A stretch of 64,000 nucleotides of DNA from Escherichia coli phage NG_A1. Each line of letters opens with the position of its first letter. The stretch's first letter is position 1. The notes below the pieces were generated by a model. That model saw nothing but the letters and a program-made list of their open reading frames with translations. It ran no database searches and had not been told where the DNA came from. Below are positions 1-10,440 of the stretch, piece after piece. Where the stretch lies: sequence record LC788705.1, one strand, 5' to 3'. Position numbers and translations under genes: made by a program.

Positions 1-200
1 ATGAGAATGATTCTCATTTAAAAAGCGGAATGAGAATGATAATAATTCGCATTTAAGAATGGAAGTGAGAATTATTCAGGAAGTGAAACGATTCTCATTT
101 AAAAAGCAGAATGATTCTCATTTAGAAAGTGGAACGCAAATAATAGTGATTCGTATTTAAGAACGGAAGTGAGAAACACTATTATTTAAGTTATCCACAG
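1..200. repeat. Cluster of near-palindromic GAGAAT(G/C)ATTCTC units plus a ~55-bp imperfect tandem direct repeat (approx 26-85 and 140-200)
   Basis: Palindrome copies read at 3-15 and 108-120, half-sites at 32-40 and 89-97; two ~55-bp units align at ~80% identity. Confidence 0.7.
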
Positions 201-300
201 ACTTATTAACAGCACGATTTGACTTGACAGAATCCTAGCCATTTTGGGGTGTTATTAACAGACTTATCCACAGCTTATCCTACTGTATAAATATACAGTA
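181..300. repeat. Inverted-repeat arm A (~120 bp) carrying DnaA boxes
   Basis: Reverse complement of 4321-4440 aligns over ~120 bp with scattered mismatches; TTATCCACA at 191-199 and 264-272. Confidence 0.8.
191..272 (+). promoter_or_regulatory. Two consensus DnaA boxes (TTATCCACA) at 191-199 and 264-272
   Basis: Exact 9-mer matches to the E. coli DnaA box consensus TTATNCACA. Confidence 0.6.
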
Positions 301-483
301 TTCCTACGCAGTGAATAATTCTAATATAGCGTTAAAACGTCCTAGATCGCATTCTAACGCGTTTAATTTTGGTGGGGATACTAAAACACGGGCAAAATTG
401 GAGGAGGCTTGAAAATTAGTTAGCTCGCTAACGATCACACAAGGCGACACGTAACACCCTAATCATTAGCAGGCTAACCATCG

Positions 484-530
484 CGGGCGCGGTCAAATGA
501 GAATCATTCTCATTTGAGAATTGGGGGCAC
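484..530 (+). repeat. ~40-bp element CGGGCGCGGTCAAATGAGAATCATTCTCATTTGAG, copy 1
   Basis: Similar element recurs in direct orientation at 10506-10544; contains the GAGAATCATTCTC palindrome. Confidence 0.6.
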
Positions 531-666
531 TTCCCGATAGTTGCGCCCCGTGATTATTATAGTAGCGGGCAACCGTTACGCTTTGCCCACTCCCGCCACT
601 CATCTTGATGCCTAGACTTGCGACGGCGTACTAAAAACCGCTTGTACCAGTGATTAAACCATCGTT

Positions 667-870
667 TCATAAACCCTCCTCCGGTAGTCGATGCGTGATC
701 TTCTCCTCCTCCCCGTAGGAATCCACCAAATACTGATAATAACCATCGTGATCATAAATCACTTTATCATATTCGCCCCGCTCGACCGCTTGCCGATTCT
801 CCGGCGTATCTGGCACGTAAAAAACATCAACCATTGTACTGATTTTGGTTACAATAATTTTATTGCTCAT
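667..870 (-). CDS. Hypothetical pre-early protein (67 aa), last gene of the minus-strand operon
   Basis: ORF with GGAG Shine-Dalgarno (TAACGGAGCGTTATT-ATG). Confidence 0.55.
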   Translation of the reverse strand: MSNKIIVTKISTMVDVFYVPDTPENRQAVERGEYDKVIYDHDGYYQYLVDSYGEEEKITHRLPEEGL

Positions 871-885
871 AATAACGCTCCGTTA

Positions 886-993
886 TTAAAAATTACCATA
901 TATTCCCGGCCAAATTTTACTAGTAACATAAGTTACTATTCCTGCCGTAATTATGCTATAAACTACTAATAAGGTAAACATTAAACCAGACAT
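886..993 (-). CDS. Small hydrophobic peptide (35 aa, MSGLMFTLLVVYSIITAGIVTYVTSKIWPGIYGNF)
   Basis: Hand-translated; AGGAG RBS upstream; predicted single TM helix; below the ORF-track size cutoff. Confidence 0.4.
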   Translation of the reverse strand: MSGLMFTLLVVYSIITAGIVTYVTSKIWPGIYGNF

Positions 994-1001
994 AATAACT
1001 C

Positions 1002-1097
1002 CTAGTAAATATATTTTTGCCAATGGTGGCGAACGTTGTCGCCACCAGCGGAATCATTAGCTGCCTTAACATTACCAACGAAAATATATAATTTCAT
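1002..1097 (-). CDS. Small peptide (31 aa) containing an internal 8-bp-stem hairpin
   Basis: Hand-translated; GGGAG RBS upstream; short, speculative. Confidence 0.3.
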   Translation of the reverse strand: MKLYIFVGNVKAANDSAGGDNVRHHWQKYIY

Positions 1098-1115
1098 AAT
1101 AACTCCCGTTATTAA

Positions 1116-1274
1116 TTATTTGCGTAAATATACGCTTGCTAGTAGTCCGGCTAGAAAGCCCGCTGATACACCAAATGAAGCCACACCGGGAACACTAGCA
1201 CCATGAGCGTATAAAGCCCAGCAAATTACATAAGGCAACAACGGAAACATGCCAGCTATTAAAAACTTTTTCAT
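1116..1274 (-). CDS. Small hydrophobic membrane peptide (52 aa)
   Basis: Hand-translated; ATGA start/stop overlap with upstream gene; AAGGTGG RBS; two hydrophobic stretches. Confidence 0.45.
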   Translation of the reverse strand: MKKFLIAGMFPLLPYVICWALYAHGASVPGVASFGVSAGFLAGLLASVYLRK

Positions 1275-1615
1275 TGCGCCACCTTTCGAAATGCTGTTTC
1301 AATACTATCAGCCGTGGATTGAATATATGCGCCTTTCATTATCAGGCGCTCGGTGCATACCTTGCGGAAAATATTAATAAAATCCTCTTCATTTTCTGCA
1401 ATCAATGCTTCCCCCATGACCTGAATATCACAAGATGCAAAGGTCAAAAATTGAAACGCTAGTTCACGGGCAACGACCGCATTAATTTTATAATGCGCCT
1501 TGCCCTCATAAATATTAACCACGCCTTTATAAACTGGTGAAAGCTGATTTAAATAGCTTGCTAATAATGCCGGACGGCAATTAGCAACAAAACGATTGCC
1601 CTCATAAATTACCAT
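1271..1615 (-). CDS. Hypothetical pre-early protein (114 aa from ATG; track ORF begins at upstream TTG)
   Basis: ORF track 1271..1630; ATG at 1615 overlaps the stop of the upstream small ORF (ATGGTAA). Confidence 0.55.
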   Translation of the reverse strand: MVIYEGNRFVANCRPALLASYLNQLSPVYKGVVNIYEGKAHYKINAVVARELAFQFLTFASCDIQVMGEALIAENEEDFINIFRKVCTERLIMKGAYIQSTADSIETAFRKVAQ

Positions 1616-1734
1616 TGCGACATCCCCCAAATAGTTGCACCGATAAAGATTAGCTGGCTAACGATGATTAACATAAAACCAATTGAAGGCAGGACGCCCC
1701 AATATTGTAACGCCCTTTTAATTTGCTGAATCAT
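1609..1734 (-). CDS. Small hydrophobic peptide (41 aa)
   Basis: Hand-translated; ATGA overlap with stop of 1731..1943 and ATGGTAA overlap with next start. Confidence 0.4.
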   Translation of the reverse strand: MIQQIKRALQYWGVLPSIGFMLIIVSQLIFIGATIWGMSQW

Positions 1735-1943
1735 AATACCCCACGAAATGCAGCGTAAAAGGTGGCAAAATGTTTAACCGTTTCAGCGATCACGTTGCCG
1801 CGCTTGTCAAATTTCTTTTCAGTAACACGAAAGGCATTCTTATTACGTGCTACGTATTCGATTTTACAATCTTCACGCTCAAACGTGTTTACATCCACCA
1901 GCTTAAAGCCTTTCGAACGTGCAAGAGAAACGTTACGAATCAT
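1731..1943 (-). CDS. Hypothetical pre-early protein (70 aa)
   Basis: ORF track; translationally coupled to both neighbours. Confidence 0.5.
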   Translation of the reverse strand: MIRNVSLARSKGFKLVDVNTFEREDCKIEYVARNKNAFRVTEKKFDKRGNVIAETVKHFATFYAAFRGVL

Positions 1944-1945
1944 TT

Positions 1946-2095
1946 TTATTCTCCTTTACCAGTCATGCAGCCTAGCAGATAAGAAAATGCGGCAATTACC
2001 GCGCCAATAGTAACCGCGTGAACACCGAAAGCTATTGCAAACAAAGATAAAATAGCGCCCAAGATACCAGCTAAAATAGCTCGAAAAATAACCAT
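1946..2095 (-). CDS. Small two-helix hydrophobic membrane peptide (49 aa)
   Basis: Hand-translated MVIFRAILAGILGAILSLFAIAFGVHAVTIGAVIAAFSYLLGCMTGKGE; GGGGAG RBS. Confidence 0.45.
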   Translation of the reverse strand: MVIFRAILAGILGAILSLFAIAFGVHAVTIGAVIAAFSYLLGCMTGKGE

Positions 2096-2144
2096 TTGTA
2101 ATACTCCCCTAGTTAGTGGGGCGAAAGTAACGCCCCGTTATTAA

Positions 2145-2375
2145 TTACATTAAAACAATTTTTGCCGCTTGTTTTTTGGTACAGTGTTCCGCTTTCAGCG
2201 TGTCCAGCAAAAAGCCAGCCGTTTGCTGATCGATTTTATCGGCGTTGTATAGTTCTTGAATGGTGTTATAAGTTTTAGCAATGCCGAACTCCTGTACCAT
2301 TTCATGAATGATGACGCGATTAGATACCCAGCCTTGCGCGGTAAACAGATGACTAGCAGAAGAATACGCAACCAT
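2145..2375 (-). CDS. Hypothetical pre-early protein (77 aa from the RBS-supported ATG)
   Basis: ORF track 2145..2408; GGAGG RBS precedes internal ATG at 2375. Confidence 0.5.
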   Translation of the reverse strand: MVAYSSASHLFTAQGWVSNRVIIHEMVQEFGIAKTYNTIQELYNADKIDQQTAGFLLDTLKAEHCTKKQAAKIVLM

Positions 2376-2480
2376 TTTAAGCCTCCAAATTTTTGGGAAA
2401 ATTTTCAACCGTCCTTAAACGGTGTAAAGGCATTATAACAAAAAGGCCACCATAAAAGGCGACCTTTACAAAACTTTACA

Positions 2481-2975
2481 TTAGACTACTTGTAGGGATT
2501 CAATATTGAAACATCGTTTCAATTCGTCATGCAAAACAGCGTATTCCTCCCATCGGGTACTATCAGGAATATAAACAAGCTGTTTTAATCGGTTTGCATA
2601 TATTACCGCTTTGTTATCGACTATCTCGACGCCGCCATATTTAATAATTAATTTCATGACGGAATTAATAGGATCGCCGCCGTTTACATATGTGCCGGAT
2701 TTACTTAACTGATAATGATAAAGGCTTGCGTATACGTTTTCATTTTCATACCATTCGCCAGTATCCTCGTCTTCATAGCCATCGCTACCAAAACGAGAAG
2801 CATTATCAATAGCCATTTCATGAGCGAAAGCGTCCAGATCCGTACCAGCAGGAACAAAGTATTCCTCGGTATTCCCTTCTCCGCAATAGCCAGTATGGCA
2901 ATCGACTAAAATGATCATATCATGTTTAGCCGTGCTCACTTCCCCTAGCGAGAAGCCGTATTTTTCCTCAGCCAT
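2481..2975 (-). CDS. Hypothetical pre-early protein (164 aa), acidic, Cys/His motif CHTGYCGEG
   Basis: ORF track; no domain recognised. Confidence 0.55.
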   Translation of the reverse strand: MAEEKYGFSLGEVSTAKHDMIILVDCHTGYCGEGNTEEYFVPAGTDLDAFAHEMAIDNASRFGSDGYEDEDTGEWYENENVYASLYHYQLSKSGTYVNGGDPINSVMKLIIKYGGVEIVDNKAVIYANRLKQLVYIPDSTRWEEYAVLHDELKRCFNIESLQVV

Positions 2976-3040
2976 TAGTTAGCCTCCTATTAATTAACAA
3001 GGGAATAGTAAAGCGGGGTAACAATCCCCGCTTAATATTA

Positions 3041-4058
3041 TTACTCGCTTTCGGTGTTAGTGGTAAAAGTAGAAATATCGATACCTTTTACCATTTCATC
3101 AATCATTTCAGCGATGTTAAAACTTTGCACCATTTCCAGCATTGCCGCTTCCATAGCCGCCCCTGCTACCGCTTTCGCCTTTTGGTTATTTGGGGCGTAT
3201 TGGTCAACCGCTACACTCAGCAGGTTAGCAATCACTACTCGACCAATAGGCGTATCGATATAACCTTTGATCATGAATGGTGCTTTTTTAGCCGCTACTT
3301 TCGTAATTTGAGTTAATGCAATTTTACCCGCCTCCAGTTTTGCAGCATTTACAACAGCGGATTTATTGGCGGCAACAATGTTAGCAATCTTGGTCATGGT
3401 GTTTTTTCCTTTGTTTTCAGTAGTTTGAGTGTTAACGCTTTGAGTGTTAGAATTTACAGCATGGTTTTCTACGCTGTCAATAATCTGATCTTCATCTTTC
3501 CAGAAAGAAAAACCAGCGCTTTCTATATCCCCATCATAAATATATGGGTATAGCTCCCGTGGTAACAAAAAATTACCGTCGTCATCAAAAGCCATTATAC
3601 CAGTATATTGAGATCCGTCGTTATCCGGCTTATGCCATCCAGCTGGTAAATACTTCCAGATAACATCTAAAAATCCCTCAATACTAGAAAGTCCGTTTAT
3701 CAGATCAAGCCCAATAAGCTCAAAACCATTTATATTAAATGATTGACGGCCTGAATTGCTATGATACGCAACAATATTATTACCCTGCGCAATAATAAAA
3801 TCGGTATCCGGCCCCGCTCCCCTGCCTGTAAAGATATGGCAATCCCGATTATATATATAAAACTAGCGTTGCCCCTTGCTTATATAATGGTAGAAAACTA
3901 TCCATATCATAGGCGTCATAATCATCAAAAAAGTTTTGATGAATAGTTTCAGCCTTGTTAATAAAATGTTTAATGCTGGTTGACTTGCTACCGTCCAGCA
4001 GGTTGCGCAATGCACCTTTTAAAACGGTGGCATTATCAGGTTTATACAGCCTCATTTG
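3041..4058 (-). CDS. Hypothetical pre-early protein, apparently interrupted by a +1 frameshift near 3849-3865 (fused product ~340 aa)
   Basis: Track ORFs 3849..4199 and 3041..3595 are joined by an 89-codon stop-free, start-less stretch (3596-3862) in the frame of the downstream ORF; strong GAGGGAGG RBS before ATG at 4058. Confidence 0.4.
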
Positions 4059-4320
4059 TTCGGCCTCCCTCGTTAATCGGTGAGTGAATGATATAGATAT
4101 TTGTTCACTAGGGGCAAGAAAAAAGAAAATGTTTTTTATTCCTTGCCTAGCGCCTAGTTTTATGCTAACCGCGCAGCGGTACAGTAAAGAGCAAAACACG
4201 GTGAAGCCACCAGGGCGACTGGTGAAGGCTTTACTTTAATATTACCCCACCGCATTTAGCTCGTTAGAAAGCGTTTTAGGCCGCTTAAAATTAATTGCAG
4301 TCGTTAACACTACCTTTCTA

Positions 4321-4440
4321 CCCTGTATATTTATACAGTAGGATAACATGTGGATAAGTCTGTGGATAAGTCCTTATATCGCCGCCTATCGTGTCAAGTT
4401 AATTTACAAAATGTATAAGGCTGTGGATAACTTAAATGAT
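4321..4440. repeat. Inverted-repeat arm B (~120 bp) carrying DnaA boxes
   Basis: Reverse complement matches 181-300; TGTGGATAA at 4349-4357, 4361-4369 and 4422-4430. Confidence 0.8.
4349..4430 (-). promoter_or_regulatory. Three consensus DnaA boxes on the complementary strand (4349-4357, 4361-4369, 4422-4430)
   Basis: Exact reverse-complement matches to TTATCCACA. Confidence 0.6.
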
Positions 4441-4620
4441 AGTGGTTCTCACTAACTAATTTATGCAGTTATTGTATAACAAAATATAGTTAGTTGGCTA
4501 ATAGGATTTTAAAGTGATTATGAGTCTGCTAATTAAACCTGAAAAACTCATTAGGTAGTCTGCTAATGATTTTGATATAATATAATAGAGATTAAATTAA
4601 TAACATAAGGAAACAATTAG

Positions 4621-5139
4621 ATGCCTAAATATAAAGATATAGATTATGACCTTTTTAATAGTTACTTTTATTATGATGAAACAGCGTTATCATTTTTACG
4701 TTGGCGGGAGGATCACGCCGTCGCAGGTGGTTTAAATGGTAATTATTGGCAAGTTGAACTATTAGACATGGGACAATTCAAAGTACATAGAATTATCTTT
4801 TGTATAATGAATGGCGGTATAGATAGCGAGCTAATGATTGATCATATTGATCGTAACACACGTAACAATAACATCTGGAATCTTCGCGCGGTTGATAGTT
4901 CGCAGAATAATTATAATCGTACTCCTAGTGAGTATGAAAACTGTAAGCGTGCTAATGGTATCCCTAGAAACATTTACGTTAATAAAGTTCGCCCCCGTGA
5001 TAGTTTCGGGCGTGATTATTTAACTGCTCAAATTAAGAATCCTATTACTAACAAGCGTGTTAGTAAGTCTGGTTATGATTTACAAGAGTTATTATTATGG
5101 CTTGAAGCTAAAAAAGCTGAATTTGGAATTGTCAATTAA
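4621..5139 (+). CDS. HNH homing endonuclease (HNH_3-type)
   Basis: Motif IDHIDRNTRNNNIWNLR; AT-rich flanks; extended -10 TGATATAAT upstream. Confidence 0.7.
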   Translation: MPKYKDIDYDLFNSYFYYDETALSFLRWREDHAVAGGLNGNYWQVELLDMGQFKVHRIIFCIMNGGIDSELMIDHIDRNTRNNNIWNLRAVDSSQNNYNRTPSEYENCKRANGIPRNIYVNKVRPRDSFGRDYLTAQIKNPITNKRVSKSGYDLQELLLWLEAKKAEFGIVN

Positions 5140-5637
5140 TTAATTTTATAAAATAACTCGTTTAGTCTTGATTTTTAAAAGTCAATATCTTTTACAACTA
5201 TTTTTCAATTTTGCTTTTGTTAAATATTTGTTAAATCGAAAATAAGCCGCCTAAAACGCCCTAGAACGCGATGAAGTTTTTAGCCATGCCATTGCATTGC
5301 CTGCCCTCGTTTATCGCTGCCACGAGCTTTTTAGATTTTGTCAAGTAGGGCAAAGCAAATATAAATGAAAAATTACTTGCCTATCTGCTTTATTTTGTGG
5401 TATTCGCGCGCCCGTTTCTTTTAATTTTAGGCCGTCGCCGCACGGTGTCCGGTGAGTTTTACCTTTACGTTTCTTTACAAAAATAAGGTTGCGCCGTTTT
5501 TAGTATTTGCTATTATTTATCTCGTAGGACGGCAACGGACTACAACGGCGGGAAGTTTACCGCCGCGCTCTTTAAAAATTGGGTACATCTTAAAGCCTAT
5601 CGGCGGTAAACTTATTACATTATAAGGAATCGACGAT

Positions 5638-5841
5638 ATGAAACAAACGCTTTTGATCACTGGCAAGCCTATTAAGGCACTAGATAGCAAAACAAAAAAC
5701 TTGTTGACAGTAGCACAAAGATCAGTAAAATATAGATTCACGCAGTACAAGAAAGGTCGCCAGCAAGGTCTGGAAATGATCTGGCGAAATATTATGATTG
5801 ACCTAAAAGAAAATCATAAAAAATTGCAAAAAATTGTTTGA
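5638..5841 (+). CDS. Small basic protein (67 aa) flanked by a 24-bp inverted repeat
   Basis: ORF track; Lys/Arg-rich; inverted repeat at 5581-5604 and 5859-5882. Confidence 0.4.
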   Translation: MKQTLLITGKPIKALDSKTKNLLTVAQRSVKYRFTQYKKGRQQGLEMIWRNIMIDLKENHKKLQKIV

Positions 5842-6071
5842 CAACCTAGCCGATAGGTTTTAAGATGTACCCAGTTCGATAAGAGCGATAACTTGATAAA
5901 ATTTGACGGTCGGTGCTTACCATAATGCATCCCGCCCCCTAACGGGATATAGCGGCCTACGTGGAGTTCTTTAAAATTGATTATATTGGCGAGCGGATTG
6001 TTACTTATTACCTGCTGTTACTTTCTAGCAGGTAATGCGGAACAATCCCCAAATAACTAGGAGTTTATATT

Positions 6072-6323
6072 ATGCAAAACGTTATTACCGCGCCGAAAGT
6101 TGGTCAATCCGTCTTCATTCCTTTCGTTACTAAAACGGATGAATTAACCGGAAAGGCCGAACGTATTAAAGGTGCGGCGCTTATGCCGTTCGATACAATC
6201 GACGCGGTATACGCTGAAAATGAACGTAGTAACAACGGCAAGCCCGTTTTTAGCGTTCGCGTTAAATCCGGCGATGTTGTAAAGGTTGTTCAACGCAACG
6301 AAAAATGGGAAGCTGTATTGTAA
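6072..6323 (+). CDS. Hypothetical pre-early protein (83 aa)
   Basis: ORF with AGGAG RBS; followed by a stem-loop at 6337-6362. Confidence 0.55.
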   Translation: MQNVITAPKVGQSVFIPFVTKTDELTGKAERIKGAALMPFDTIDAVYAENERSNNGKPVFSVRVKSGDVVKVVQRNEKWEAVL

Positions 6324-6419
6324 ATTAGTGTTAACTTTATATCCCCTTATTTCAGGGGGATATAACGATTAACATTAAGTTAATCTAATCCCTTAAATTA
6401 AACTAATAGGAGTTACATC

Positions 6420-6827
6420 ATGACTAACGCTAAAACCGCAAAATTCGCATGGAATGAAGAAAACACTCAGAAAGCTGTTTCCATGTATCAACAGTTAATT
6501 AATGAAAACGGTTTAGATTTCGCAAATAGCGACGGCCTGAAAGAGATTGCAAAAGCAGTAGGCGCGGCCTCCCCCGTATCCGTTCGCTCAAAATTGACCA
6601 GTGCAAAAGCCTATCAAAAAAGCGATAAGCCGCGTAAAGTTGGCGGCGGTAGCTCTGTGCGTAAAGCTCACTATGTGCGCGTTATCGCTAAACATGCTAT
6701 TGATTCCGGCATTATCAAAGACGCCGATGATTTGGCAAGCCTTGAAAGTGCAAAACTTGAAACGCTGGACGCAGTAGCGCAATTGTTAGGCGTTGCCGAT
6801 GAAGTAAAACAGGCCGCAGGCGAATAA
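6420..6827 (+). CDS. A2: Putative pre-early DNA-binding protein, A2-like (135 aa)
   Basis: Size and position immediately upstream of the A1-like gene; basic C-terminal half; AGGAG RBS; name assigned from memory of T5. Confidence 0.45.
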   Translation: MTNAKTAKFAWNEENTQKAVSMYQQLINENGLDFANSDGLKEIAKAVGAASPVSVRSKLTSAKAYQKSDKPRKVGGGSSVRKAHYVRVIAKHAIDSGIIKDADDLASLESAKLETLDAVAQLLGVADEVKQAAGE

Positions 6828-6917
6828 TAGTTATATCTTGCCCCCTTTTAGTGAGGGGGCAATAATATAACTGTTTAGCGATAGTTATTTTCTTCCCTTA
6901 AATCAGGAGTTTTAAAA

Positions 6918-7115
6918 ATGGTTTTCTCCCCTACTGAATCTTTAATTCTAGGCTTATTTATTATGGCGGCCTCCCTATTATTCGCTTATTTTCAAAATGA
7001 TTTAGATTCGTATTATTTTAAACGTAAATCTAAATTAGCAAAACGTTTAGGTCTGCTTTGTTTTATCGCTGCCGTTGCTTGTGGTGTTAGTTCTAGCCTA
7101 GTGCCTTTAAATTAA
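6918..7115 (+). CDS. Small membrane protein (65 aa, two predicted TM helices)
   Basis: ORF with CAGGAG RBS; hydrophobic stretches LILGLFIMAASLLFAYF and LLCFIAAVACGVSSSLV. Confidence 0.5.
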   Translation: MVFSPTESLILGLFIMAASLLFAYFQNDLDSYYFKRKSKLAKRLGLLCFIAAVACGVSSSLVPLN

Positions 7116-7205
7116 TATTGCAAATTATAACGCCTATTGTTCGAGGCGTTATATTTGGCAATATTGCCGTTACTAACCTAATCCCTTTAATGGAGTTTTA
7201 TTACT

Positions 7206-8876
7206 ATGATTATTTCCGCAGAAAAACAAACCGTTATCCTGAAAATGGCCGCTGACTTTAACTTCTACGGTAAACGCCTGCGCGCCACTAAATTGGAAGT
7301 TTGTGACGATATTTCGAAAGCGGTATACGATACTACTAAACACTCCACCGCCATTTGTGATTGGTTGGAAGCAAATAAACCAGCGAAACCAAAAGCGGCA
7401 AAAGTAGCAAAAGCCATTAAAAACGATGAGCGCCCAGAAGCGGCGGGAATTGTTTCTAGTACGGTTGAGCAATGGGAAGTAAAACAGGGTAAACGCTTTA
7501 TTATTACGTCGATTCAAAATAATACTTTCCCGCATAAAAACTTTTTAGCCTCACTGGAGCAATTTGCTAAATATATCGGTGCTGATTTGCTTGTTTCTAA
7601 GTATATTTATAATAAAAACGGTTTTCAAAATGGGGAAGGTGCGGATGGAATCAAATATGATTCCGCGTTCGATAAATATATTTGCAGCAAAAACGTGTTT
7701 TTAAATAACCGCCGCTTTGCTTTCATGGCTGAAATTAATGTTTTGCCAACCGCAGATTATCCGCTTTCTGGATTCGCCGAGACTGCAACGGCTTTAAATA
7801 TTGAGGGGCTGGCAATTGGTCACGCTAAAATTACCGCTGAAAGCGTGCCAGCTTTAAAAGGTGAAGTAGTGCGCCGTATGTACTCAACCGGAACGGCAAC
7901 GCTCAAAAACTACATTCAGCAGAAAGCAGGACAAAAAGCGGAAGCACTGCATAACTTCGGTGCGCTTATTGTTGAGTTCGACGACGACGGGGAATTTTTT
8001 GTTCGCCAGCTTGAAACAATGGACGAAAGCGGGGTGTTTTATGATCTGAACGTTTGCGCTACTCCTGCCGGATGCTATGAAACAACGGGGCATGTTTTAG
8101 GCTTGCAATATGGCGATATCCACGCCGAGAAATTAGATGAGGAGTGCGCCGCCGCATCTTGGGGGCATGGTGATACTTATGGGCTTGTGGATATTCTTAA
8201 ACCAAAATATCAGTTTGTACATGACGTGCATGATTTTACATCGCGCAACCATCACAACCGCGCATCGGGTGTATTCCTAGCGAAACAGTATGCAGCCGGA
8301 CGTGATAAAGTTCTGGATGATCTTATCGATACGGGGCGCGTACTGGAATCAATGGAGCGCGATTTTAGTCAAACAATCATTGTTGAATCGAATCACGATT
8401 TGGCGCTATCCCGTTGGCTTGATGATCGTAATGCTAACATCAAAGACGATCCAGCAAACGCCGAGTTATATCACCGCCTGAATGCTGCAATTTACGCGGC
8501 AATCGGTGAACACGACGAAACGTTTAACGTGCTAGATTATGCGTTGCGCAAGGTTGCAGGTTGTGAATTTAACGCCATTTTCCTAACGACTGACCAATCT
8601 TTCAAGATTGCAGGTATTGAATGCGGCGTACACGGTCACAATGGCATTAACGGGAGCCGTGGCAATCCGAAACAGTTTAAGAAATTGGGCAAATTAAACA
8701 CGGGGCACACCCATACCGCCAGCATTTACGGCGGCGTTTATACCGCTGGCGTGTCTGGTAGTCTGGACATGGGTTACAACGTTGGCGCGTCAAGCTGGAC
8801 GCAAACGCATGTTATTACCTATGCAAACGGTCAGCGCACTTTGATCGACTTTAAAAACGGTAAATTCTTTGCGTAA
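7206..8876 (+). CDS. A1: Pre-early protein A1, metallophosphoesterase-like (556 aa)
   Basis: Phosphoesterase-like motifs GDIH, GHGDTYG, ESNHD, GVHGHNG; 556 aa matches T5 A1 size as I recall. Confidence 0.75.
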   Translation: MIISAEKQTVILKMAADFNFYGKRLRATKLEVCDDISKAVYDTTKHSTAICDWLEANKPAKPKAAKVAKAIKNDERPEAAGIVSSTVEQWEVKQGKRFIITSIQNNTFPHKNFLASLEQFAKYIGADLLVSKYIYNKNGFQNGEGADGIKYDSAFDKYICSKNVFLNNRRFAFMAEINVLPTADYPLSGFAETATALNIEGLAIGHAKITAESVPALKGEVVRRMYSTGTATLKNYIQQKAGQKAEALHNFGALIVEFDDDGEFFVRQLETMDESGVFYDLNVCATPAGCYETTGHVLGLQYGDIHAEKLDEECAAASWGHGDTYGLVDILKPKYQFVHDVHDFTSRNHHNRASGVFLAKQYAAGRDKVLDDLIDTGRVLESMERDFSQTIIVESNHDLALSRWLDDRNANIKDDPANAELYHRLNAAIYAAIGEHDETFNVLDYALRKVAGCEFNAIFLTTDQSFKIAGIECGVHGHNGINGSRGNPKQFKKLGKLNTGHTHTASIYGGVYTAGVSGSLDMGYNVGASSWTQTHVITYANGQRTLIDFKNGKFFA

Positions 8877-8931
8877 ATAAATTATTTCCCCTAGCGGCTT
8901 GAAATATAGCCGCTATTACAGGAGTCAAAAA

Positions 8932-9189
8932 ATGAAAGTTACATTACCCAAAACATTGGACGAAAAAGTATTCATTTCACCGGATGAAATGGAATCTGAT
9001 AAAGTTTACAGCTTCGGGCCTATCCTAGCCGCCAAAACTAATACGGATGGTATTATTTCCGTCGATTCCCGTGATAACGATATTGTCCCTTTTGATGATG
9101 ATGGCGCTTTTTATGAGTGGCTAAGCGATAATAATTTACCCGTAAACGGTGAATTAACGCCGTACCAGATGCAGATTATTATCAAATAA
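8932..9189 (+). CDS. Hypothetical pre-early protein (85 aa from the RBS-supported ATG)
   Basis: ORF track 8899..9189; AGGAG RBS precedes ATG at 8932. Confidence 0.5.
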   Translation: MKVTLPKTLDEKVFISPDEMESDKVYSFGPILAAKTNTDGIISVDSRDNDIVPFDDDGAFYEWLSDNNLPVNGELTPYQMQIIIK

Positions 9190-9227
9190 ATTAAATCCAT
9201 TATTAAACTAATTGGGGTTTTATAAAT

Positions 9228-9626
9228 ATGAAAAAGCAAAATATTCCATTCGATCGCGCTCAATCTTCTATTGTTCTGGTTTATTCTAATGGCGAACGTT
9301 ACCACGTCGAGGCGGGGCACGTTATTGATGAATTACTAGACTTTAATGACGCTTTGCAGGTTACTACCTTTGCCTATACGCAAGCCCGCGCAAGTAGCTA
9401 CATTAAGGCCGTAGGCGTTTATGTTGACACGGTGAAGCAAGAAACGATTATCATCGACGCAGTAAAATCCGGTCTAGCCTTTGCAGTTGTCGCGCCTTGC
9501 CCCGCTTGCCTCGATGATCAATTGATCAGCGCAAAGGTATATACCTGCGCGGGTATCCGTTCCCATGTATCAGGTGAGGATGTTAGTTTTATCGCTGATG
9601 CGTTGGCTTTTGGTCTGGCGTTCTAA
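9228..9626 (+). CDS. Hypothetical pre-early protein (132 aa)
   Basis: ORF track; followed by a stem-loop at 9640-9668. Confidence 0.5.
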   Translation: MKKQNIPFDRAQSSIVLVYSNGERYHVEAGHVIDELLDFNDALQVTTFAYTQARASSYIKAVGVYVDTVKQETIIIDAVKSGLAFAVVAPCPACLDDQLISAKVYTCAGIRSHVSGEDVSFIADALAFGLAF

Positions 9627-9705
9627 TAGTTAATTTATTATTACCCGCTATTTATAAGCGGGTAATGCTGAATAAACTAAATCCCTTAAATGGAGAACGT
9701 AACAA

Positions 9706-10440
9706 ATGAATAAAGCTATTATTAATTCTTTCCGTAATTTCCCGCATATTTCCCGCGTCATGATTTGGGATTTAGACGGCACTATCATTAATTCTTTCCA
9801 TCGCGTAGCGCCTTGCTTTGATAGCGAGGGCAATTTAGATTTAAATAAGTATAAAAATGAAGCCTGCAAACATCATTTAATAATGCAAGATTCCTTATTG
9901 CCATTGGTTGAATATATGCGCCAGTGCATGAATGACGCAAATACTTTAAACATTATTTGCACCGCTCGACTGATGAGCAAGTCGGACTATTATTATTTGC
10001 GTAAACAAGGGTTGCGCGGTCGTGGCGATAGCAATATCCGCGTGTTTTCTCGCGATACACTGCATAAATATTTTAAAGCTGATAAAGTTAGCGAGATATA
10101 CCACAGCAAAGACGCAGTATATAAATCTTATTACTTTGAATTATTTAAACAATTATATCCGAACGCTGATTTTACAATGATTGATGATCATAAAGGCGTG
10201 CTATCAGCGGCGGCATCATACGGATTTAAAACGCTGGATGCGCAAGCCGTTAATGATATTCTATCAATAGGTGTAACATTAATAGGTGAAACCTTTATTG
10301 ATGAATCGCTCGACGATGATAATGATTATCAATTCCTAGCTGACCGTTTAAAATTATGCTGGGAAGGTATGACCGAGGAAGAACGCGCAGAATATAGTTG
10401 CAGCCCGCAACAATATATTGAGAAATTAAAAGTTGCCTAA
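9706..10440 (+). CDS. dmp: HAD-superfamily phosphatase, T5 dmp-like 5'-deoxyribonucleotidase (244 aa)
   Basis: HAD motif I IWDLDGTII near the N-terminus; TGGAG RBS; position matches the T5 pre-early set. Confidence 0.65.
   Translation: MNKAIINSFRNFPHISRVMIWDLDGTIINSFHRVAPCFDSEGNLDLNKYKNEACKHHLIMQDSLLPLVEYMRQCMNDANTLNIICTARLMSKSDYYYLRKQGLRGRGDSNIRVFSRDTLHKYFKADKVSEIYHSKDAVYKSYYFELFKQLYPNADFTMIDDHKGVLSAAASYGFKTLDAQAVNDILSIGVTLIGETFIDESLDDDNDYQFLADRLKLCWEGMTEEERAEYSCSPQQYIEKLKVA

Follow-up and report, generated by a model that had tools for sequence, protein, structure and literature searches.

Micro-ORFs of the pre-early operon

We examined five very small open reading frames (ORFs) near the start of a 64,000-nucleotide stretch of Escherichia coli phage NG_A1 (sequence record LC788705.1; the whole stretch is called the window below). 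These micro-ORFs, named A49, B41, C52, D31 and E35, start with ATG and lie on the minus strand, exactly at the coordinates given by an initial annotation made from the sequence alone (Table 1). They are interleaved with conserved genes in a row of ten cistrons, g76-A49-endo70-B41-g114-C52-D31-E35-g67-F37, which tile 1746 of 1819 nt (96%) on a single strand. A DNA search of a collection of 50,697 phage records with positions 500-2500 of the window matched 435 records, every one from T5-like Demerecviridae, with Salmonella phage vB_Si_CECAV_FGS009 (Tequintavirus) as the top match (96% identity over the full length). The matching stretch lies within the terminal repeat annotated as LTR (1..10407) in phage MM-1, and its equivalent in T5 is T5.012-T5.017, in the left terminal repeat directly ahead of the injection stop signal; the T5 left terminal repeat is described as comprising the first-step-transfer DNA (NC_005859 record). 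The start of the window is the terminal repeat, i.e. the first-step-transfer, pre-early DNA, of a Tequintavirus, and the initial annotation was right to speak of a pre-early operon. The genes are found on the minus strand because the window runs inverted relative to the usual T5 map.

Short ORFs are frequent by chance, and 62 of at least 25 aa overlap the first 6 kb of the window; what goes beyond chance at this locus is the Shine-Dalgarno (SD) sites, the 96% single-strand tiling and the conservation. For each of the five micro-ORFs the initial annotation had claimed an SD site or an ATGA/ATGGTAA overlap, and direct reading together with duplex energies bears this out. The endo70/B41, g114/C52 and g67/F37 pairs overlap by ATGA and B41/g114 by ATGGTAA. 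Non-overlapping starts sit 2-49 nt past the previous stop behind GGAG-type SD sites: A49 begins 49 nt past the preceding stop (SD site GGGGAG), D31 18 nt (GGGAG) and E35 8 nt ((T)AGGAG), with the E35 site TAGGAG overlapping the D31 stop codon, and the 3' end of A49 includes the SD of the next gene. The duplex energies with the anti-SD sequence range from -6.1 to -7.8 kcal/mol for the five micro-ORFs and from -6.1 to -12.6 kcal/mol for all ten cistrons. A value of -6.0 kcal/mol is reached by 18 of the 140 ATG-initiated ORFs of 30-60 codons in the window (13%), so that on this background SD sites at five out of five micro-ORFs have a probability of ~3.5e-5.

We then considered conservation in a sample of 54 related loci, 36 from IMG/VR (collected via the g114 protein) and 18 GenBank regions. 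Intactness was counted over nucleotide copies spanning at least 80% of the micro-ORF length, and omega was obtained from Nei-Gojobori counts along a minimum spanning tree of distinct alleles, not from a full codon model. The frames are intact in all copies (family A, 46/46; B, 16/16; C, 13/13; D, 24/24; E, 9/9), and starts and stops are conserved among relatives. Omega is 0.11 for A (35 alleles), 0.27 for B (16 alleles), 0.06 for C (7 alleles), 0.17 for D (15 alleles), 0.16 for E (7 alleles; p=5e-5) and 0.23 for F (9 alleles), the binomial p values for the called frames lying between 5e-5 and 8e-60. Accepted neighbouring genes give 0.06-0.14; when the alignments are shifted into either of the other two frames, omega is 0.55-6.6. 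The initial annotation had staked its proposal on the frames being conserved in relatives, and they are so throughout, with every copy intact and omega at 0.06-0.27. Because the frames are intact in all copies and omega is low only in the called frame, these data clearly indicate that the five ORFs are almost certainly genuine protein-coding genes under purifying selection.

Table 1. Features of the pre-early operon, listed from its head to its last cistron (positions in the window)
Feature	Coordinates	Strand	Description
Operon head	2401..2467	-	terminator-like hairpin 2467..2442, then promoter-like site 2428..2401
g76	2145..2375	-	first cistron; T5.012 homologue, PHROG 5145, conserved core gene, omega 0.08
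GC-rich hairpin GGGGCG-TTACTTT-CGCCCC	2118..2136	-	between g76 and A49; conserved, without T tract
A49	1946..2095	-	micro-ORF, 49 aa; short allele of T5 gp013, PHROG 5607
endo70	1731..1943	-	70-aa core gene; PHROG 4227, conserved
B41	1609..1734	-	micro-ORF, 41 aa; predicted amphipathic helix and one transmembrane helix, slot 2
g114	1271..1615	-	114-aa core gene; PHROG 4379, locus tag T5.015 in NC_005859
C52	1116..1274	-	micro-ORF, 52 aa; PHROG 35622, first cassette of slot 3
Junction TAATTAATAACGGGAGTTATT	1098..1118	-	C52 stop codon, AT-rich inverted repeat and SD; one TAATAACGGRGNGTTATT-ATG copy
D31	1002..1097	-	micro-ORF, 31 aa; PHROG 22819, equals ORF017 of T5 AY587007
Junction TAGGAGTTATT-ATG	994..1004	-	shorter junction, precedes E35
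E35	886..993	-	micro-ORF, 35 aa; predicted single transmembrane helix
Junction TAATAACGGAGCGTTATT	871..888	-	between E35 and g67; motif precedes g67 whatever cassette lies upstream
g67	667..870	-	conserved core gene; T5.017 homologue, PHROG 6973
F37	557..670	-	micro-ORF, 37 aa; last cistron ahead of the injection-stop region

Gene finders do call these ORFs. All five are annotated coding sequences in FGS009 (PP407513), and subsets are annotated in MM-1, slur09, FGS029, ECOP18, VAH1, KookSpook, bobsandoy, bastian and Seafire; in the curated Seafire record, the homologues of A and B are marked as membrane proteins and given ribosome-binding sites. Contrary to the initial statement, the micro-ORFs do not fall below usual gene-calling cutoffs, nor are they overlooked genes, being annotated in several GenBank records and, for three of them, assigned to PHROG families. 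What is already known is the annotation of all five in near-identical phages and a toxic T5 homologue of one of them. In the phage collection, family A was found in 338 records (tblastn), D in 152, B in 45, C in 42 (at >=94% identity), a further family termed I (see below) in 40, and E, the rarest cassette, in 12.

Exchange slots and translational junctions

Among the 54 loci, g76, endo70, g114 and g67 are nearly universal and the micro-ORFs are patchy. Gap lengths between endo70 and g114 fall into discrete classes (4, ~109, 118, 126 or 245 nt); those between g114 and g67 vary from -1 to 430 nt. In the first gap (slot 2) we observed either nothing, as in T5, or B, or an unrelated 41-47-aa two-helix peptide (G, MKSVIVILLAMVGG...), or a 35-aa one-helix peptide (H, MERAIVKMLTF...), or G and B together. 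The second gap (slot 3) is either empty or filled, in many combinations, with C, D or E, with peptide I (MAVYIALLGY..., 53 aa, two helices), with peptide J (MNSWWRK..., 45 aa, tail-anchored) or with soluble genes of 64-90 aa. We counted ~33 gene orders across these loci. The window, which carries B, C, D and E together, is among the fullest sets, and the cassette content is scattered when the loci are sorted by backbone similarity. Nine or more micro-gene families (A-E and G-J) can be distinguished; different T5-like phages carry none, one or several of them, and we are confident that the micro-ORFs are exchangeable cassettes in two slots.

The borders of the cassettes recur irrespective of what they enclose. 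Any gene after g114 begins in the same GCAATGA overlap, and TAATAACGGRGNGTTATT-ATG precedes g67 or D31 whatever the upstream content. Since start and stop junctions are shared in this way (ATGA overlaps, TAATAACGGRGNGTTATT-ATG), ribosome hand-over is kept intact in every arrangement. A more general form of the junction, TAATAACGG(R)G(N)GTTATT-ATG, found in the window at 871..888 and 1098..1118, marks cassette borders in many T5-like genomes, and its AATAAC/GTTATT inverted repeat would put the SD in a hairpin loop. In slur09 and S.Ent 1-35-3 (our loci L042 and L046), deletion scars of D31 (ATGAGATTATATATTTACGAGGAGG...) are visible upstream of E35; in some genomes the scar joins the first codon of D31 to its last at a TATATTT microhomology. 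The shared motifs and the scars indicate that gain and loss happen at junctions that double as translational signals.

Two further features bear on the history of the cassettes. Divergence within the same genomes is lower in the cassettes than in their flanks for C (0.044 vs 0.073) and E (0.053 vs 0.069), and E35 has 31% G+C and the I family 35%, the neighbouring genes having 39-43%. The low divergence of C and E together with the low G+C of E35 hints at a recent spread, acquisition or origin. T4-type hyperplastic regions (PeSL cassettes) and phage morons are cases in which small accessory ORFs come and go at set places among conserved genes. The T5-like slots resemble both in the variable presence of genes between conserved ones and in the recurring short junctions. 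They differ from PeSL cassettes in that the junctions are translational (stop-SD-start, ATGA overlap) instead of promoter plus stem-loop units, and from classical morons in that the cassettes carry neither promoter nor terminator of their own and are coupled inside one operon.

Transcript values are available for two cassettes of Bas33 (phage HildyBeyeler), whose homologous operon annotates bas33_0173 (G family, 41 aa) and bas33_0171 (I family, 53 aa). In an infection arrested after first-step transfer, the transcript level of bas33_0171 is about that of its neighbours, and the value listed for bas33_0173 is very low (supplement of PMC13250531). We suspect a read-assignment effect for the latter, a 126-nt gene that overlaps both its neighbours.

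Concerning the remainder of the locus, T5 AY587007 annotates a terminator and a putative pre-early promoter, T5P5, upstream of the gene homologous to the first cistron, and no terminator-like sites were found between the cistrons of the operon. The hairpin between g76 and A49 is kept in most relatives and may act in RNA processing, in RNA stability or as an attenuator; an Rfam scan of 1..3200 gave no match, the region not being a known RNA element. A palindromic repeat (AAATGAGAATCATTCTCATTT and variants) occurs several times in positions 1..556, the counterpart of the repeat-rich injection-stop region of T5. Note that RefSeq and PHROG 4227 place the label 'Ung-dependent AP-site nickase' on the 70-aa gene (T5.014) and papers name the nickase T5.015, which is the 114-aa gene in NC_005859, so that one of the two labels may be misplaced.

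Properties of the encoded peptides

Four of the five micro-peptides have a grand average of hydropathy (GRAVY) of 0.93-1.69 and a maximum Kyte-Doolittle 19-residue window of 1.84-2.54. The initial count of four sequences resembling transmembrane (TM) helices is thereby sustained: A49, B41, C52 and E35 are strongly hydrophobic and very probably are very small inner-membrane proteins.

A49 matches PHROG 5607 over its whole length (E=1.7e-29, positions 1-49/49) and sits between the T5.012 and T5.014 homologues of the first-step-transfer region, as T5.013 does. Its hydrophobic span covers residues 1-46, and AlphaFold2, run on a 30-sequence alignment, returned helices at 2-23 and 27-46 separated by a three-residue turn, with a mean predicted local distance difference test (pLDDT) score of 78; A49 is thus predicted to be a two-helix membrane hairpin. 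In line with this, the RefSeq note on T5.013 (YP_006841) reads 'contains two transmembrane domains'. T5 gp013 and A49 have in common two hydrophobic helices and a C-terminal SYLLGCM..KGE; gp013 is longer (59-60 aa vs 49 aa) and carries an 11-residue inter-helix loop, DSYCGLVNTKP, the absence of which leaves the short turn of A49. Short and long alleles are both common in the A family, the T5 protein tested by others being the long one (loop of ~12 residues), and small-xxx-small repeats (Gly/Ala/Ser) are abundant in both helices of the family.

For B41, AlphaFold2 proposes a short N-terminal amphipathic helix (2-12) followed by a TM helix (14-40), with a pLDDT of 88. One face of the TM helix is invariant (W12, G13, S17, F20, I24, Q27, L28 and I31), and the periodicity of conservation peaks at 100 degrees (permutation p=0.013, 18 sequences). 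An invariant Gln in mid-membrane and one-sided conservation are expected of a helix that packs on a defined partner, not of a mere anchor. A 40-aa homologue of the B family in ECOP18 (locus L045, 1937..2059) is labelled 'iron ABC transporter permease', and STG2 (NC_048089) likewise lists this name under a B-family match; on a single hydrophobic helix, it is evidently an over-annotation.

C52 matches PHROG 35622 (E=3.2e-39, positions 1-52/52) and, having two hydrophobic helices, probably forms a hairpin. D31, with a GRAVY of -0.48, is not hydrophobic and is a soluble microprotein of 31 residues with an invariant C-terminus; it matches PHROG 22819 (E=1.5e-25, positions 1-31/31). In T5 AY587007, its counterpart ORF017 (8562..8657) directly follows the 114-aa gene, with an ATGA overlap with ORF016. 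We noted that the T5 RefSeq record (NC_005859; locus L003, 3142..3439) omits D31 and has T5.016 (85 aa) begin inside it in another frame. The selected frame there is that of D31 (omega 0.17 vs 0.79 or more), and the junction TAGGGTTATTATG predicts a 64-aa T5.016 starting with MITLICV; bas33_0170 (Bas33, locus L054, 1640..1968) is over-extended in the same way. An alternative frame over D31 and E35 (a 38-aa ORF, MLRQLMIPLV..., and the N-terminal extension of T5.016) was rejected, its omega being 0.79-1.5 against 0.17 for D31. The reference annotation, from which D31 is absent and in which T5.016 is over-extended, is corrected accordingly; this affects clones in published expression screens, in that, owing to the over-extension, '016' clones may have the wrong N-terminus.

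A sixth coupled micro-ORF, absent from the initial annotation, is F37 (MKRWFNHWYKRFLVRRRKSRHQDEWREWAKRNGCPLL). It encodes a very basic peptide (12 Lys and Arg in 37 aa), has the strongest SD of the operon (-12.6 kcal/mol), is present in about one quarter of the related loci, and could be a nucleic-acid-binding microprotein. Given the number of window ORFs with equally strong SD sites (18/140), further small genes beyond these six may exist elsewhere in the window.

Homology searches led to few informative matches. Pfam, NCBIfam and PADLOC scans of all the peptide families gave nothing above noise. In the PHROG scan, A, C and D hit only families of unknown function, and B, E and F had no match. 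A search of 5.8 billion proteins found T5-like relatives only (C52 gave 3 clusters, the B profile 10 and the A profile 29), and with D31 as query an exhaustive phmmer search brought up a single relative, of 32 aa, the remaining hits being spurious and in giant proteins. On these searches, the micro-ORF families are orphans restricted to the T5-like lineage. Searching the Protein Data Bank (PDB) with profiles gave as sole match the type I toxin PepA1 (E=0.17), which we rejected as not significant, and Foldseek found no match to the A49 model in the PDB.

Possible roles in infected cells

How might such peptides serve the phage? Our preferred reading, to which we give somewhat better than even chances, is that the five are accessory pre-early genes, four of which act as conditional inner-membrane effectors. 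Host RNA polymerase would transcribe the rightward pre-early operon from the first 8% of the genome, the first part to enter the cell, and a short pulse of micro-peptides would be made immediately after first-step transfer. The hydrophobic peptides would then insert into the inner membrane and act there by packing helix against helix, either among themselves or against membrane proteins of the host, shifting membrane or envelope functions to the advantage of the phage, e.g. permeability, the exclusion of other phages or a membrane-bound defence. The benefit would depend on the host or on the competitor, and a conditional benefit of this kind would explain both the dispensability in the laboratory and the patchy distribution.

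Experimental background exists for T5. Annor et al. cloned 17 annotated T5 pre-early genes, seven of which, 013 included, were toxic in E. coli; 013 expressed alone led to shrunken, non-refractile, DNA-free cells, a lysis-like outcome that the authors link to the two predicted TM domains (bioRxiv 10.64898/2026.04.02.716235). The same study reports that T5 deleted for hegG-017 and most of the left operon is viable and makes small plaques. As T5 tolerates the loss of hegG-017, the entire right half of its pre-early region, with only this small-plaque phenotype, any role of the micro-ORFs is accessory or conditional. The initial suggestion of host-takeover or anti-defence effectors thus finds a functional pointer in the A family, through the toxic, lysis-like effect of T5 013 expressed alone, and finds none in the other families: the Pfam, NCBIfam and PADLOC scans showed no homology of B41, C52, D31 and E35 to a known effector, defence or anti-defence family. 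The toxicity of overexpressed gp013 is the sole functional pointer, and it is weak evidence.

Several points weigh against our preferred reading. Mahata et al. (2021) also cloned T5.013, without listing it as toxic (PMC8201957). A49 lacks the loop of the T5 protein tested, so the phenotype may not transfer to it, and the viability of the hegG-017 deletion phage means that no strong function is visible in the laboratory. The helix-face periodicity comes from one family and 18 sequences, omega from Nei-Gojobori counts on a spanning tree, with 7 alleles only for E35, and translation and membrane localisation of the five peptides in this phage are inferred from their sequences. With no homology to characterised proteins, the partners proposed are purely conjectural.

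Bacterial inner-membrane regulators such as AcrZ, MgrB, MgtS and SgrT have 30-50 residues and one TM helix, and bind a larger membrane protein by one face of it. B41 and E35 are alike in having fewer than 50 residues and one predicted TM helix; a conserved helix face is seen in B41 only, the variants of E35 being too few. The window genes differ from these regulators in lacking sequence similarity to them and in being phage-encoded and confined to T5-like phages, and regulation of this type by B41 and E35 may serve as a working analogy.

An alternative, which we find unlikely, is that the hydrophobic peptides are generic membrane-damaging toxins that oligomerise into pores or depolarise the inner membrane with no specific target, like type I toxins (TisB, Hok, PepA1) or holins, and so would help to shut down host metabolism. 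The peptides share with these their shortness and hydrophobicity, gp013 as a homologue of A49 does compromise cell integrity, leaving the shrunken, non-refractile, DNA-free cells mentioned above, both A-family helices carry small-xxx-small repeats, and the PDB profile match, below significance as it is, was to PepA1. T5-infected cells arrested after first-step transfer also turn into phase-light ghosts (PMC13407855). The phage, however, needs an energised and intact cell for ~40 min past the pre-early phase, the single conserved face and invariant polar Q27 of B41 point to specific packing, and an omega of 0.06 for C52 is lower than generic hydrophobicity requires. Moreover, toxicity upon overexpression is common for any small TM protein. 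Unlike type I toxins, the micro-ORFs come with no antisense RNA or antitoxin that we could find, and no Rfam match in 1..3200; unlike holins, they are flanked by pre-early genes, with no lysis genes or endolysin adjacent, and their expression would fall at the very start of infection instead of at the time of lysis. Depolarisation in normal infection is described as transient (PMC13407855), and 013 was not toxic in another laboratory (PMC8201957). The dedicated alternative of superinfection exclusion or inter-phage competition, by peptides blocking DNA entry, seems to us distinctly unlikely. T4 Imm and Sp and HK97 gp15 are small, early, non-essential inner-membrane proteins of ~80-100 aa, from virulent or temperate phages, that serve superinfection exclusion, and the window peptides are likewise small, early, non-essential and predicted to be in the inner membrane. 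Their genes are among the earliest expressed, dispensable in single infection and highly variable in presence, with alternative families in the same slots, and arms races among co-infecting phages would diversify such a repertoire. Imm, Sp and gp15 are longer, however, and the PHROG scan detected no homology to them; no similarity to any PHROG annotated as superinfection exclusion and no PADLOC match were found. In addition, the T5 exclusion factor is the early lipoprotein Llp, acting on FhuA (as cited in PMC10644984), so that exclusion is already provided at the outer membrane.

Two other explanations deny the peptides any role. The micro-ORFs could be translated spacers that pass ribosomes on to the core genes or tune them, the peptides being irrelevant, as the start/stop overlaps, the SD sites inside preceding cistrons and the recurrent junction motif that sets the SD in a weak hairpin loop would allow. 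Yet the amino-acid sequences are under purifying selection (omega 0.06-0.27), unrelated families that occupy the same slots are again hydrophobic, and cassette-less phages couple the core genes directly via the same ATGA or TAAAATG junctions, so that no spacer is needed; with omega well below 1 and this direct coupling, we rejected a pure spacer function and regard it as highly improbable. We likewise rejected, as scarcely credible, the view that phage gene finders, being permissive, have called ORFs that arose by chance or are decayed remnants of larger genes. Chance alone does often yield ORFs of 30-50 codons in this AT-rich DNA, B41 and E35 have no PHROG family, and D31 also aligns weakly with positions 1-24 of a PHROG profile 97 residues long (E=1e-4), but every copy is intact, omega is well below 1 in the called frame only, all five have an SD, and starts and stops are conserved, as is the C-terminus of D31, which is invariant.

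Returning to conditional inner-membrane effectors as our preferred reading, a bolder version of it, which we put forward tentatively and hold to be doubtful, is that the two slots are a dedicated exchange system for micro-membrane-proteins (families A-E and G-J, at least nine, mostly transmembrane), which T5-like phages would shuffle by way of the shared translational junctions, each peptide neutralising a different membrane-linked target of the host, of its defences or of competitors in the first minutes, when no more than 8% of the genome has entered. The targets might be an inner-membrane host factor, a membrane-embedded abortive-infection or defence effector, or the entry route of a competing phage. 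Several early events of T5 infection still have no responsible gene, namely the closing of the channel between the transfer steps, base export and the protection from nucleases and abortive infection (bioRxiv 10.1101/866236).

That the early region of a phage should encode small accessory membrane proteins is expected rather than surprising; what the present analysis adds is the picture of exchange slots, the tests for selection and the conserved face of a helix. Among the pre-early genes of T5-like phages, most are without an assigned function, and the micro-ORFs constitute a short list of candidates, of 31-53 codons, that are easily synthesised. If the two slots do act as an exchange system, the cassettes would be a compact combinatorial arsenal for counter-defence or exclusion in T5-like phages, and a source of specific inhibitors of bacterial membrane proteins.

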